Of a stretch of DNA of 64,000 nt, positions 26,186 through 29,981 are shown piece after piece. The first letter of the stretch is position 1. The number at the start of each line of letters is the position of its first letter. The stretch spans positions 2,866 to 66,865 of the forward strand of contig JAHFUO010000003.1 of the NCBI GenBank assembly GCA_023265015.1. The letters run 5' to 3'. The notes beneath the pieces were generated by a model that did not search any database, was not told the origin of the DNA, and saw only the letters and a list, made by a program, of their open reading frames with translations. Made by a program: the position numbers and the translations under genes. The stretch is from Acidobacteriota bacterium. Lineage in GTDB: Bacteria > Acidobacteriota > Vicinamibacteria > Vicinamibacterales > UBA2999.

Positions 26186-28857
26186 AGATCCTCCTTTTCG
26201 TGCGGCACTATTCGTACCTGCGGCTGTTCGAGTCGGGGATCACCGAGCTCGCGCGGCGCGGGCATCGGATCCATCTCTCCGCCGATCGCGAAGAGTCGAT
26301 GGGCGGCCGCCGCATGGCCGAGCGCCTCGCGGAGACGCATCCGAACATCACGCTCGGGACGACCCCGGGCCGGGCGCCGGGCGCGTGGGCGGAGTTCGCG
26401 AGGCGCCTGCGCCTCGGGATTGATTACCTCCGGTATCTCGATCCGCGGTACGACAACACGCCGCACCTCAAGGCGCGGGCGCGCGATCGCGCGCCGCGCA
26501 GTGTCGTGGCGATTGCGGAGCACCTCCAGGGCACACACGCGCGTGACCTGCTCGCGCGCGTGCTGCGCACGCTCGAGCGTGGGGTGCCGCCGAGCGCGCA
26601 TCTCGAGAACTGCATCCGGCAGCAGGCGCCCGACATCGTGCTGATCACACCGCTCGTGGAGCTCGGGTCCCCGCAGATGGATCATCTGGCGGCCGCCAAG
26701 GCGCTCGGTGTGCGCACCGCGCTGCCGGTGGCGAGCTGGGATCACCTGTCGAGCAAGGCGGTCGTGCGGAACCATCCCGACATGCTGCTGGTCTGGAACG
26801 ACATCCAGAAGCAGGAAGCGATCGAGATGCACGGCGTGGCGCCTGAGCGGGTCGTCGTCACCGGCGCGCATTGCTACGACCAGTGGTTCGACCGCGCGCC
26901 CTCGTGCAGCCGCGAGAGCTTCTGCTCGCGCGTGGGCCTGCGGTCCGACCGCCCGTTCGTGTTGTATCTCTGCTCGTCGCTGTTCCGCGGCACCGCGAGC
27001 GAGGCGGCGTTTGTCGAGCGATGGGTCGAGGCGATCCGCACGAGCGCCGATCCGCGGCTGAAGGACATCGGCATCCTGATCCGGCCGCATCCGGTGCGCC
27101 TCGACGAGTGGAAGGAGATCGACCTCTCCGGATACAGAAACATCGCATTCTGGGGCGCGCACCCGGTCGATGACGAGGCGAAGAACGACTACTTCGACTC
27201 GATGTATTACAGCGCCGGCGTCGTCGGCCTGAACACGAGCGCCTTCCTCGAAGCGGCCGTCGTCGAGAAGCCTGTCCACACGGTGCTCGTCGACGACATC
27301 TCGCGGCACAACCAGGAAGGGACGATTCACTTCCACTATCTGCTCGACGTGAACGGCGGCCTGCTGCGCGTGGCGCGCACGCTCGATGAGCACGTGCGCC
27401 TGCTTGCGGATTCGCTCGCGCCGGAAGGCGGCGGCGATACGAAGGCGCACCGCTTCGTCGAAGGCTTCATCCGTCCGTTCGGCGCGACCGTGCCGGCGAC
27501 GCCGCGCTTCGCGGACGCGCTCGAGACGCTCGGCGCATCGCCGTCGCCTCGTCCTGTCGGCGACGGGCTGACCGAGCGCGTCCTGCGCCTCGTGTTGTAT
27601 CCAGCGGTTGGCGCGCTGCAATTGCTCCTGGTGACGCAGCCGCATCGGAAGCGGGTGCGGCTGCAGCTTCGCAAGTGGTTCCAGGATGGCCGCCGCCGCG
27701 TGTTCGTGACGCTGAAGCAGTTCGCCCAGAACCAGCTTGGCGAAAAGGAGCTGACCGCGGCGCCGCTCGGACCGCCGTCGGCGCTCACGCCGAAGCCTGG
27801 CCGACCGCGCGATCCCGCGAAGAAGCTCGCCGGCTGGAACCTGCCGGAGGCCGAAGAGACGCGCGAGCTGATCACCGCCCTCGGTCGAAGCGGCCGGCCG
27901 ATCCTGATCGGGCCGTGGCTCTCGGAGGCGGGATTCGAGCTGCTCTACTGGATTCCGTTCCTCGCCTGGGCGAAGGCGTACGGCAATCTCGATCCGTCAC
28001 AGCTCGTCGTGATCTCGCGCGGCGGCGCCTCGTCCTGGTATCGCGACGTCACGACCAACTACGAAGACGTCCTGTCGTTCTACACGCCCGACCAGTTCCG
28101 CGCGCGCAACGAGGCGCGCATCATCGAGCAGCGCGGCCGGATGAAGCACGTTGAGATCTCGAGCTTCGACCGCGAGATCATCGCGAAGGTCACCGAGAAG
28201 CGCGGGCTGAGCGGCGTCCGCCTGCTGCATCCGTCGACGATGTACCGGTTGTTCGATCATTTCTGGTTCCAGCGTGTGCCGGTGACGCTGATCGAGGCGT
28301 TCACGTCGTTCGGCCCGCTGCCGCCGGTCGAGATCGGCGACCTTCGAGGCCGCCTGCCGGAGCGCTACGTGGCCGCGAAGTTCTACGGCAACACGGCGCT
28401 GCCCGACACCCCGGAAAACCATGCGTTCGTCGCGTCGTACCTCGAGGAGCTGACACGGCACATCGACGTCGTGCTGCTCAACACCGGGCACCGGTTCGAT
28501 GACCACGAGGACATGCCGCGCGTGAATCGAAGCCGGATTCACACGGTTGATCACCTGATGACGCCGGCGACGAACCTCGACGTGCAGACGCGGATCATCG
28601 CGGGCGCCGAGGCATACGTCGGCACGTATGGCGGCTTCTCGTACGTGGCGCCGCTCGCCGGCACGCACGCGCTCACGTTCTACTCGCACATCACCGGCTT
28701 CCGCTTCGACCACCTCGAGGTGGCCAAGCGCGTCTTCTCCGGCCTGAAGCAGGGGAGCTTCGTCGAGGTCGATCTGCGGTCGGTCGATCTGCTGCGCCTC
28801 GGGTTTGGCGGCGGTTCTCCTGTGACCGATGCCCTGGCTGGGGTGACTCGAGGGTGA
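26182..28857 (+). CDS. Family A - family B fusion protein (891 aa)
   Basis: A module, ~26182-27560: MKILLFVRHYSYLRLFESGITELARRGHRIHL, SWDHLSSKAVV, VTGAHCYDQWF, ILIRPHPVRLDEW, EGTIHFHYLL. B module, ~27830-28857: [73 protein letters not shown]. One uninterrupted ORF. Confidence 0.8.
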   Translation: MKILLFVRHYSYLRLFESGITELARRGHRIHLSADREESMGGRRMAERLAETHPNITLGTTPGRAPGAWAEFARRLRLGIDYLRYLDPRYDNTPHLKARARDRAPRSVVAIAEHLQGTHARDLLARVLRTLERGVPPSAHLENCIRQQAPDIVLITPLVELGSPQMDHLAAAKALGVRTALPVASWDHLSSKAVVRNHPDMLLVWNDIQKQEAIEMHGVAPERVVVTGAHCYDQWFDRAPSCSRESFCSRVGLRSDRPFVLYLCSSLFRGTASEAAFVERWVEAIRTSADPRLKDIGILIRPHPVRLDEWKEIDLSGYRNIAFWGAHPVDDEAKNDYFDSMYYSAGVVGLNTSAFLEAAVVEKPVHTVLVDDISRHNQEGTIHFHYLLDVNGGLLRVARTLDEHVRLLADSLAPEGGGDTKAHRFVEGFIRPFGATVPATPRFADALETLGASPSPRPVGDGLTERVLRLVLYPAVGALQLLLVTQPHRKRVRLQLRKWFQDGRRRVFVTLKQFAQNQLGEKELTAAPLGPPSALTPKPGRPRDPAKKLAGWNLPEAEETRELITALGRSGRPILIGPWLSEAGFELLYWIPFLAWAKAYGNLDPSQLVVISRGGASSWYRDVTTNYEDVLSFYTPDQFRARNEARIIEQRGRMKHVEISSFDREIIAKVTEKRGLSGVRLLHPSTMYRLFDHFWFQRVPVTLIEAFTSFGPLPPVEIGDLRGRLPERYVAAKFYGNTALPDTPENHAFVASYLEELTRHIDVVLLNTGHRFDDHEDMPRVNRSRIHTVDHLMTPATNLDVQTRIIAGAEAYVGTYGGFSYVAPLAGTHALTFYSHITGFRFDHLEVAKRVFSGLKQGSFVEVDLRSVDLLRLGFGGGSPVTDALAGVTRG

Positions 28858-29981
28858 GCGGCTTTCTTCACACGCTGAGGCGGCCGATTCGCGACATGCT
28901 GCGCCATCGCGCGGAGCTGCGCGAGCAGCGTCAGTGGTCGCGCGTCGCATGGCAGGTCGAGCGCGAGATCGAGGATGTGGTCGGCAGGGGCCGCACGCTG
29001 GTCGTCGGCCCGTGGCTCTCCGAGGTCGGCTACGAAGCGCTCTACTGGATTCCGTTTCTGCGCTGGGTCACGGCGGCGTTCCGTCTCGATCCCGGTCGCG
29101 TCGTCGCGGTGTCGCGCGGCGGGGTCGGCTCGTGGTACGACGGGATTGCCGGACGCTACGTTGAAATCTGGGACGAAGTCGATCCGGCCGAGTTCGCGCG
29201 GCGCGGGGCCGAGCGTGGTGCGGCCAAGCAGCTCGAGATCTCCGCGTTCGATCGTGAAGTCATAGCCGCGGTGGAGCGGCGCATCGGCGCGCCGGTCGAC
29301 GTGCTGCACCCGTCGCTCATGTACCGACTGTTCTCGCTGTTCTGGTCGGGGCAGCGGCCGCTCAGCTTTCTCGACAGCCACACGCGGTTCGAGCCGATCG
29401 CGCCGCCGCGGATCCTCGATCCAGGCCGTCTGCCGCGCGAGTACGTCGCGGTGAAGTTCTACGCCGCGCGGTCGCTGCCCGATACGCCGGACATCAGGCG
29501 GGTGCTCGCGTGGTTTGTCGAGAGCCTGGCCGAGCGCACGAATGTCGTGCTGCTCGATACCGGCCTTGCCCTGGATGAGCACACCGATTACGCGTTCGGT
29601 CCCGCCTACGCGTCGGAGACGCTACGGCGCGGCGAGCCGTCAAGCCGCGTGATCAGCGCGAAGCCGTGGATGACGCCGTCGAACAATCTCGGGGTGCAGA
29701 CGCAGATTATCGCCGGCGCGCAGGCGTTCGTCGGCACCTGCGGCAGCGTCGCGTGGCTGGCGCCGATGCTGGGCGTCAACACCTCCGCGGTGTACGTCGA
29801 CCCGAAGTGGCTGCATGCGCACCTTGGCGTGGAGCTTCGCGCGTGCCACCGCGCGGGCGCCGGGCGGTTTGCGGCGCTCGACCTGCGTGCGCTCGAACCG
29901 TTGGCCGTTGCGCCACACGTCGGCTCAAGGCTCACGGCTCAAGCCTCAGGCGGCTTTAGCCTTAGGCCCCTTGAGCCCTAA
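28854..29981 (+). CDS. Family B protein, copy B3
   Basis: GTGA overlap. [73 protein letters not shown]. The last ~20 codons are encoded by the GGCTCAAG repeat. Confidence 0.75.
   Translation: MSGFLHTLRRPIRDMLRHRAELREQRQWSRVAWQVEREIEDVVGRGRTLVVGPWLSEVGYEALYWIPFLRWVTAAFRLDPGRVVAVSRGGVGSWYDGIAGRYVEIWDEVDPAEFARRGAERGAAKQLEISAFDREVIAAVERRIGAPVDVLHPSLMYRLFSLFWSGQRPLSFLDSHTRFEPIAPPRILDPGRLPREYVAVKFYAARSLPDTPDIRRVLAWFVESLAERTNVVLLDTGLALDEHTDYAFGPAYASETLRRGEPSSRVISAKPWMTPSNNLGVQTQIIAGAQAFVGTCGSVAWLAPMLGVNTSAVYVDPKWLHAHLGVELRACHRAGAGRFAALDLRALEPLAVAPHVGSRLTAQASGGFSLRPLEP

Follow-up and report, generated by a model that had tools for sequence, protein, structure and literature searches.

What does a protein family do that occurs six times in a single glycan locus and matches no named family? 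The question is raised by a 64-kb stretch from an Acidobacteriota bacterium (contig JAHFUO010000003.1, positions 2,866 to 66,865; this whole stretch is referred to here as the window), which has a guanine-plus-cytosine (GC) content of ~67% and in which, from ~13.9 kb onward, nearly every gene lies on the + strand, with many stop/start overlaps. Judged from its gene content, the window is a large glycan locus. A preliminary description, made without database searches, had noted six paralogs with a GPWxSEVGYExLYWIPF signature (here, family B), had likened their C-terminal half to the donor-binding half of GT9 heptosyltransferase-type GT-B enzymes, and had proposed that they form linkages or modify residues repeatedly during glycan assembly. 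We followed up this description with the third copy (28854-29981) as target. The explanation that we regard as probable is that family B is an unclassified family of soluble, cytoplasmic GT-B glycosyltransferases and a very distant offshoot of GT9, and that its paralogs, together with a second GT-B family (family A), build a lipid-linked nonulosonate glycan from a sugar donor for which a candidate is named below.

Six paralogs of one protein family

The six copies lie on the + strand where the preliminary description had placed them (Table 1). All translate cleanly, a tblastn search of the window with the target recovers six B domains, no more, and no degraded extras, and the copy described as fused forms the C-terminal domain of an 891-amino-acid (aa) protein. 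GC content at third codon positions in the open reading frames (ORFs) of the copies is of coding type (0.79-0.88); the ORF of copy 1 opens at 8107, where it would overlap smpB, and the GTG at 8206 is the probable start, while the GTG start of the target overlaps the TGA stop of the A-B fusion gene (GTGA). Pairwise, the copies are 34-49% identical across 290-349 aa (BLASTP, E 1e-58 to 1e-108), a similarity that is far above chance and extends past the motifs originally quoted: the six-copy alignment is unbroken over ~310 columns, with 38-51% identity to the target and 54 invariant columns, and the paralogs diverge mainly in the N-terminal helix, linker and tail. Overall, the motifs had been quoted correctly, with some amendments; the second reads SRGG-x2-(S/A)-W-Y, with two rather than three variable positions, the copy at 35085 departs from the pattern with TRGG and FVGTCGA, and N(N)LG(V/T)QT is kept less strictly than claimed, only N278, L279 and Q282 being conserved.

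An AlphaFold model of the target, built on an alignment of 113 sequences, shows two Rossmann-like halves with an interdomain cleft (predicted local distance difference test score [pLDDT] 91.3; predicted template modelling score 0.89). A long N-terminal helix (aa 2-44) is followed by an N-terminal Rossmann half (46-165, with strands at 48-51, 83-87, 101-104 and 148-151), a variable linker, and a C-terminal Rossmann half (196-345, with strands at 197-201, 230-233, 266-268, 291-295, 309-314 and 339-343); the order of strands and helices is typical of GT-B proteins, and the predicted fold is GT-B. As a side observation, the target carries a 12-residue insertion (YASETLRRGEPS) at 29583-29645 (aa 244-264), which the five paralogs lack; it directly follows the invariant D241-x-H243 loop, where internal model confidence is lowest (pLDDT ~56). 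A Foldseek comparison, which had been suggested as a check, places the target among GT-B structures with GT9 enzymes nearest: the best 50 of 67 matches in the PDB (E<=0.001) are all GT-B proteins, and the best by E-value and template modelling (TM) score among those listed are the GT9 enzymes WaaF (1psw; E 1.8e-6, TM 0.45/0.50), 3tov, WaaC (2h1f) and TibC (4rap), the last with the lowest root-mean-square deviation (5.8 Å). TM scores against GT9 structures range from 0.35 to 0.50 and identities from 10 to 17%; hence, no solved structure is closely related.

Searches of sequence libraries agree with the earlier remark that the N-terminal signature belongs to no named family. Pfam-A and NCBIfam gave no family match for any of the six copies, and Glyco_transf_9 (PF01075) was not matched at E<=1 in any of them; one paralog grazes the TibC/Aah heptosyltransferase model TIGR04414 (E 0.08; 11.9 bits against a cut-off of 200). 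Pfam matches among 113 diverse relatives amounted to coiled-coil noise caused by the N-terminal helix, plus Glyco_transf_9 in two of them at a marginal E of 0.05, and searches of PDB sequences with 6-sequence and 113-sequence profiles gave nothing usable. Neither Pfam nor NCBIfam gave a confident match to a characterised non-transferase family. Public names of cluster members are all "hypothetical protein" (e.g., in metagenome-assembled genomes [MAGs] of Vicinamibacterales), and the literature yielded nothing relevant on nonulosonate glycans in Acidobacteria or Vicinamibacter, on GT9-like nonulosonate transferases, or on new families of legionaminic acid transferases. At the 50% identity level, the family comprises 1,692 clusters (E<=1e-3), 909 of them with E<=1e-30; a set of species-representative genomes contains 463 matching stretches, and the 71 loci kept come nearly all from Vicinamibacterales or unclassified Acidobacteriota MAGs. 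Family B is thus a new sequence family inside the known GT-B fold, found largely in Vicinamibacteria-type Acidobacteria and absent from current libraries. No transmembrane segments are predicted in any of the six proteins, which are best read as soluble cytoplasmic enzymes.

Relation to GT9 and the predicted active cleft

A profile of four GT9 enzymes from E. coli K-12 (WaaF, WaaC, WaaU and WaaQ) was compared with family B by hhalign, which reported a probability of 48.7% (E 1.8e-4) over 94 columns, placing B 208-317 on WaaF 192-290, and the FVGTxG motif of B on the xVxNDSG motif of GT9; the match covers the C-terminal half only. Controls gave 0.8% for GT4 (WaaG and WaaB) and 0.15% for GT30 (WaaA). 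Together, this alignment, the GT-B model and the GT9 matches in Foldseek support the comparison of the C-terminal half with the GT9 donor-binding half. The view that the N-terminal signature stands outside named families can be refined, since the signature is recognisably derived from the strand-1 loop of GT9, which reads KILVIGPSWVGD (LVIGPSWVGD) in WaaF and TLVVGPWLSE in B. The invariant E57 of GPWxSE, at the start of helix 1, takes the place of GT9 Asp13 (G12-D13 in WaaC and WaaF), an equivalence made by topology and inspection; Asp13 is the proposed catalytic base of WaaC.

Family B shares with GT9 (WaaC, WaaF and other PF01075 members; TibC/Aah) the GT-B fold of its best structural matches, a C-terminal layout that the profile comparison aligns, at the probability given above, between the N-L helix cap and xVGTxG, a strand-1 loop of the form GP(x)W...(D/E) with an acidic residue opening helix 1, and a predicted soluble, cytoplasmic role in glycan assembly. 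Even the setting has a likeness, as a neighbouring nucleotidyltransferase best resembles HldE domain II and the short-chain dehydrogenase/reductase (SDR) beside it has a sub-cut-off match to an HldD-type epimerase. By contrast, B fails the Pfam and NCBIfam models of GT9, has an extra long N-terminal helix, and does not conserve GT9 residues K195, D269, H274, A277, A278 and P282 (WaaF numbering); of the C-terminal GT9 invariants, a single one recurs in B, the Leu of the N-L helix cap, and B has invariants of its own (R88-G89-G90, Y95, K125, H152-P153, D241, H243, N278, Q282 and H323). Also unlike GT9, B sits in nonulosonate loci rather than loci for the lipopolysaccharide core, and no heptose pathway (GmhA, kinase) was recognised among the window genes. 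From model and sequence, B is most aptly seen as a remote relative of GT9 with a re-tooled scaffold, and it lies outside GT9 itself.

Conservation was assessed in 113 relatives sharing 31-63% identity with the target. Seventeen columns are invariant (G52, P53, E57, G59, E61, W65, R88, G89, G90, Y95, Y203, D241, H243, N278, Q282, G297 and H323), 11 of them polar or charged (E57, E61, R88, Y95, Y203, D241, H243, N278, Q282, H323 and W65), and W54, K125, H152, P153, T295 and G298 are nearly invariant; the family-wide invariants are kept in all six window copies. On the model, conserved residues sit in loops that follow strands 1, 2 and 4 in the N-terminal half and strands 1-4 in the C-terminal half, the latter being the canonical donor loops of GT-B enzymes, and form no other surface patch; this confinement to cleft loops is the pattern of an active cleft. 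H152-P153-S154 was considered as a sialyltransferase HP motif and rejected, as it lies in the N-terminal half, following strand 4, while the C-terminal half has D241-x-H243 and no Pro.

From paralogy, fold and conservation, and from the fusions and synteny described below, we infer the following mode of action. The C-terminal Rossmann half would bind a nucleotide-activated sugar through donor loops that carry Y203, D241 with H243, N278 with Q282, and T295, G297 and G298. The N-terminal half would present the acceptor, with E57 in the GPWxSEvGxE loop serving as general base to activate the acceptor hydroxyl, and with E61, R88-G89-G90, Y95, K125 and H152-P153 lining the same cleft. Each of the six paralogs would contribute a single residue to a lipid-linked nonulosonate glycan, with its own linkage or acceptor context, and B would work in alternation with family A, probably in a physical complex.

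Fusions, neighbours and the choice between explanations

At least 27 of the 150 best representatives of 50%-identity clusters are A-B fusions, and the architectures seen include A-B, B-B, B-A-B, A-B-A, A-B-B, GT2-B and B-sulfotransferase. The last is represented by P0129, which is the closest cluster representative to B copy 1; this suggests that the residue added by the copy-1 subfamily, or its acceptor, may be sulfated. The flagellin pseudaminyltransferase FlmG has a GT-B C-terminal domain (PMC7591256); a comparable fusion of B to tetratricopeptide repeats was not found among the cluster representatives scanned with Pfam.

Synteny was examined in 50 related loci, each 15 kb or longer, in which SDR and nucleotidyltransferase genes were counted within 10 kb of B. 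These loci carry two to seven B copies, and B outnumbers A in some. NeuB is found in 48, family A in 46, SDR in 45, NeuC in 44, NeuA in 43 and a nucleotidyltransferase of 150 aa in 42, so that B does track neuA and neuB, a point that had been raised for checking. A core order is kept, namely A-B fusion, (B), NeuB, NeuC, methyltransferase, NeuA, B, B, SDR and nucleotidyltransferase. A divergent type of locus is seen in two metagenome contigs with 62% GC (L073 and L075; ERZ27252307 and ERZ27264405), where the order is an ABC transporter (ABC-2 pair), A-B, B, A, A and GT2-B, a nucleotidyltransferase-methyltransferase fusion, NeuB, SDR, A, A, and a weakly PMT_2-like member of a membrane protein family (family C, below). 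As these two loci stand behind an ABC-2 transporter and the window has flippase-type genes, the A/B module appears to be used with two export routes. No locus that separates B from A was found; apparent loci with B and neuB but no A start in a partial A-B fusion at the edge of the DNA. Both the fusions to glycan enzymes and the conserved synteny with neuB, neuC and neuA support the putative, repeated linkage-forming role that had been proposed for B.

Family A, defined by the N-terminal 500 aa of the 891-aa fusion and ~480 aa per domain, matches B in number in the window, with six domains of each (tblastn). Its AlphaFold model is GT-B (pLDDT 91.9), with an invariant RPHP after strand 2 of the C-terminal half, G-x-N-T-S...E after strand 4, and an invariant SWDxLxxKG. 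The model did not resolve A as TagF-like or sialyltransferase-like, giving only generic GT-B matches in Foldseek (2-epimerases, WaaG and MshA), and A and B are not mutually related by hhalign (probability 0.4%). All 10 A domains tested match NCBIfam BFO_1060_trans (NF046086; E 4e-5 to 5e-12), and four of these have a further match, to TIGR04396 ("surface carbohydrate biosynthesis protein"). The T. forsythia protein BFO_1060 is homologous to Tanf_01245 and TFUB4_00887, which carry an HP motif and are genetically required for adding a pseudaminic or legionaminic acid derivative to the O-glycan (PMC5420450). Because of the RPHP motif and the BFO_1060 matches in all 10 domains, A, a second unclassified GT-B family, is the likelier nonulosonate transferase and, on sequence grounds, a more economical candidate for transfer from CMP-nonulosonates than B. 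The likeness to the Tannerella enzymes, which are of GT-B type and stand beside a CMP-nonulosonate pathway, is thus a likeness of family A (weak match, HP motif), whereas B has neither a BFO_1060 match nor an HP motif in its C-terminal half.

With regard to the donor of B, we tentatively favour, at somewhat less than even confidence, a nucleotide sugar other than a nonulosonate, the leading guess being the product of the adjoining HldE-II-like nucleotidyltransferase and SDR; a CMP-nonulosonate is less likely, and the remaining option is one of the other UDP-sugars made in the locus. A donor of this kind is favoured because A fits CMP-nonulosonates better than B does, because the nearest relatives of B use ADP-heptose, and because a conserved nucleotidyltransferase that resembles HldE domain II adjoins an extended SDR of nucleotide-sugar type. 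The nucleotidyltransferase scores 60.7 bits against HldE domain II in NCBIfam (cut-off 181.5) and 29.9 bits against TagD, and the SDR falls below the NCBIfam cut-off for several epimerase/dehydratase models, with GalE at the top and the HldD-type heptose epimerase fourth. Nucleotidyltransferase and methyltransferase are joined in one 368-aa protein in four loci (L073, L075, L076 and L077) and therefore probably act on the same substrate. Such a non-nonulosonate donor is opposed by the lack of GT9 heptose-binding residues in B, together with the lack of an evident heptose pathway in the window.

Several observations weigh against the glycosyltransferase reading, or against parts of it. The link to GT9 is weak, with TM scores of at most 0.5, an hhalign probability below 50% and Glyco_transf_9 matches in two of 113 relatives at E 0.05. 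In B, the positions of the GT9 invariants K195, D269 and H274 are taken by T211, C/Y296 and W/Y301, and as these donor residues have no conserved counterpart, the donor chemistry may differ considerably. UDP-GlcNAc 2-epimerases, GT-B proteins that are not transferases, nearly equal GT9 by Foldseek E-value. Conservation is about equal in the two halves (mean column entropy 1.91 in the N-terminal and 2.01 in the C-terminal half), although acceptor domains of GT-B transferases usually diverge; this may reflect a common acceptor type, or a part of the N-terminal half in donor or partner binding. Finally, the BFO_1060 matches of family A score 23-46 bits, a long way short of the curated cut-off of 200, and the loci compared for synteny come almost entirely from one lineage and are not independent.

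The alternative that survives best, which we nevertheless consider unlikely, is that B itself is a sialyltransferase-like CMP-nonulosonate transferase, each paralog adding a legionaminic- or neuraminic-type residue in a different linkage while A does something else. The company that B keeps would suit such a role: it occurs with neuB, neuC and neuA in 43-48 of the 50 loci and with NeuB in the ABC-transporter locus, the target lies directly upstream of neuB, two more copies follow neuA, and the window encodes two nonulosonate pathways. Within the protein, D241-x-H243 follows strand 2 of the C-terminal half, the site of RPHP in family A and a position that presumably approximates that of the catalytic His in HP-motif sialyltransferases (GT80 structures), and T295-x-G297-G298 caps a helix in the manner of the phosphate-binding Ser-Ser/NTS motif. 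However, neither sequence nor fold matches sialyl-, Kdo- or nonulosonate transferases; the HP-motif families GT38, GT52, GT80, GT99 and GT107 have no Pfam match among the 113 members and are absent from the Foldseek top 50, the BFO_1060 model has no match in the B portions, and similarity to the CMP-Kdo transferase WaaA was rejected at the hhalign probability given above. Moreover, the H152-P153 of B stands in the wrong half for an HP motif, and assigning this chemistry to A, which is fused to B and has the canonical RPHP, is more economical.

It is considerably less probable that B, while a GT-B protein, is not a glycosyltransferase but acts on nucleotide sugars as a 2-epimerase or hydrolase, or attaches a non-sugar group such as pyruvyl or glycerophosphate to the glycan. 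UDP-GlcNAc 2-epimerases come next after GT9 in Foldseek (E 3.7e-6), but their TM scores of 0.26-0.37 are lower than those of GT9 (0.35-0.50), and Epimerase_2 (PF02350) has no match among the six copies or the 113 relatives, while the two NeuC genes of the window match it at E 3e-67 and 2e-69. The loss of GT9 donor residues, an unusually conserved N-terminal half, which would suit a fixed small substrate, and the weak TagD likeness of the 150-aa nucleotidyltransferase are all compatible with such a function; yet TagF-type and pyruvyltransferase structures are absent from the Foldseek top 50, and six paralogs with fusions to GT2 and A typify chain-building transferases rather than precursor enzymes. 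Most improbable of all is a role for B without catalysis, in which it would serve A as scaffold, chaperone or acceptor-binding subunit (by analogy with GtfB in GtfA/GtfB), for although equal domain numbers, frequent A-B fusions and the loss of classical GT9 donor residues could be so explained, 11 invariant polar or charged side chains on all four donor loops and the strand-1 loop suggest an active site, B-B, GT2-B and B-sulfotransferase fusions occur without A, and some loci have more B than A. Copy number, fusion partners and the conserved polar cleft thus make both the non-transferase and the non-catalytic readings less likely than a glycosyltransferase function for B.

Multi-domain capsule polymerases, such as the hexosyl-/sialyltransferases of N. 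meningitidis W/Y (GT4+GT97), KpsC with tandem GT107 modules, and TagF-like polymerases, offer a parallel for the A/B arrangement. As in these enzymes, two GT-B modules are fused in one chain, with variable order and number (A-B, B-A-B, A-B-A), and the locus of A and B is of sialic-acid type and includes export genes, which encode Wzx-like and GT-C-like membrane proteins in the window and an ABC transporter in L075. Unlike them, A and B fall outside the polymerase families, with no Pfam matches and none in the Foldseek top 50, and six modules of each are spread over many genes rather than joined in one bifunctional enzyme. A bolder proposal, which we think rather unlikely, is that A and B form a new modular, combinatorially shuffled two-enzyme system for complex nonulosonate heteropolymers of Vicinamibacteria, in which B would found a new CAZy family with a re-tooled GT9 scaffold and possibly an unprecedented donor from the HldE-II-like nucleotidyltransferase, SDR and methyltransferase genes.

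The surrounding locus and its meaning

Outside the two families, the window encodes two NeuB-like synthases, two NeuC-type hydrolysing epimerases and two CMP-nonulosonate synthetases (Pfam, NCBIfam), with further sugar genes for a LegB-like dehydratase, PseC/LegC-like aminotransferases, NeuD-like acetyltransferases and a UDP-GlcNAc 3-dehydrogenase-like oxidoreductase. At least four methyltransferases, three GT2 enzymes and a polyprenyl-phosphate sugar-phosphate transferase (Glycos_transf_4) are also present. Features with coordinates are collected in Table 1.

Table 1. Positions of family B, family A and neighbouring features in the window.
Feature	Position	Strand	Remarks
B copy 1	8206-9498	+	tblastn B domain 8449-9447; adjoins minus-strand sulfation genes
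B copy 2	27835-28857	+	C-terminal domain of 891-aa A-B fusion (26182-28857); tblastn 27835-28842
B copy 3 (target)	28854-29981	+	375 aa; tblastn 28854-29978
B copy 4	34100-35119	+	339 aa; tblastn 34184-35011
B copy 5	35085-36314	+	409 aa; tblastn 35316-36293; paralog nearest to target, 49% identity
B copy 6	45356-46582	+	408 aa; tblastn 45551-46549; ATG overlaps stop of upstream acetyltransferase gene
Six family A domains (region)	13919-27690	+	tblastn
A domains in one protein	13976-15403, 15494-16939	+	1072-aa protein
A domain in gene 17134-18834	17134-18477	+	gene concealed within a longer ORF of the mechanical ORF list
Further A domains	21856-23217, 24623-26029, 26182-27690	+	last is N-terminal part of A-B fusion
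Nonulosonate core between B copies	29985-34001	+	Pfam, NCBIfam; synteny kept in related loci
NeuB-like synthase	29985-31061	+	
NeuC-type hydrolysing 2-epimerase	31058-32215	+	
Methyltransferase of nonulosonate core	32312-33235	+	
CMP-nonulosonate synthetase	33312-34001	+	
Conserved trio 3' of B copy 5	36400-38752	+	Pfam, NCBIfam, frame analysis
Extended-SDR epimerase/dehydratase	36400-37536	+	
HIGH-type nucleotidyltransferase	37620-38072	+	150 aa; top NCBIfam match HldE/RfaE domain II
S-adenosylmethionine-type methyltransferase	38069-38752	+	LDLGCGPG motif; concealed in 491-aa ORF 37277-38752; overlaps nucleotidyltransferase stop
Family C membrane proteins	40238-41845, 41842-43548	+	tandem pair
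Family C membrane protein	695-2284	-	
Membrane protein with 10 transmembrane segments	46567-47982		no family assigned; possibly a flippase
Second nonulosonate module	51648-61530	+	315-aa unassigned protein, NeuB, SDR, aldehyde dehydrogenase, CMP-nonulosonate synthetase, full-length transketolase, HAD hydrolase, 657-aa unassigned protein
Sulfation-type genes beside B copy 1	9458-13571	-	adenylylsulfate (APS) kinase, methyltransferase, deacetylase-like protein, GT2, sulfotransferase

Some neighbours deserve mention in their own right. The second nonulosonate module has unusual companion genes, and its gene order is kept in several related loci (L049, L068, L069 and L071); its gene content hints that it may make a non-standard ulosonic acid. 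Family C is a membrane protein family with 7-8 transmembrane segments and three copies in the window, of which the tandem pair is 74% identical. It has no Pfam match in the window, and its homolog in L075 (18449-20356) weakly matches PMT_2, which suggests a GT-C-type membrane glycosyltransferase or polymerase. The first 21 residues encoded by the second family C gene (41842-41904, +) are 67% identical to those of a DegT aminotransferase (43553-43615, +; BLASTP E 6e-4), and this shared start may be a scar of the tandem duplication behind the family C pair.

Vicinamibacteria are among the most abundant Acidobacteria in soil, and to our knowledge almost nothing is known of their surface glycans. 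The locus described here brings together 12 domains of two glycosyltransferase-like families that are foreign to curated libraries, as well as two nonulosonate pathways, sulfation and several methyltransferases. If B is indeed a transferase family, it would represent a new CAZy family and give a function to ~1,700 clusters of "hypothetical" proteins; it would also provide a marker for sialic-acid-like glycan loci in metagenomes, could yield new enzymes for the chemoenzymatic synthesis of nonulosonate glycans, and would show how far the GT9 scaffold can drift with its strand-1 acidic loop retained. Although not a categorically new kind of system, family B is a solid lead for glycobiology and soil microbiology.

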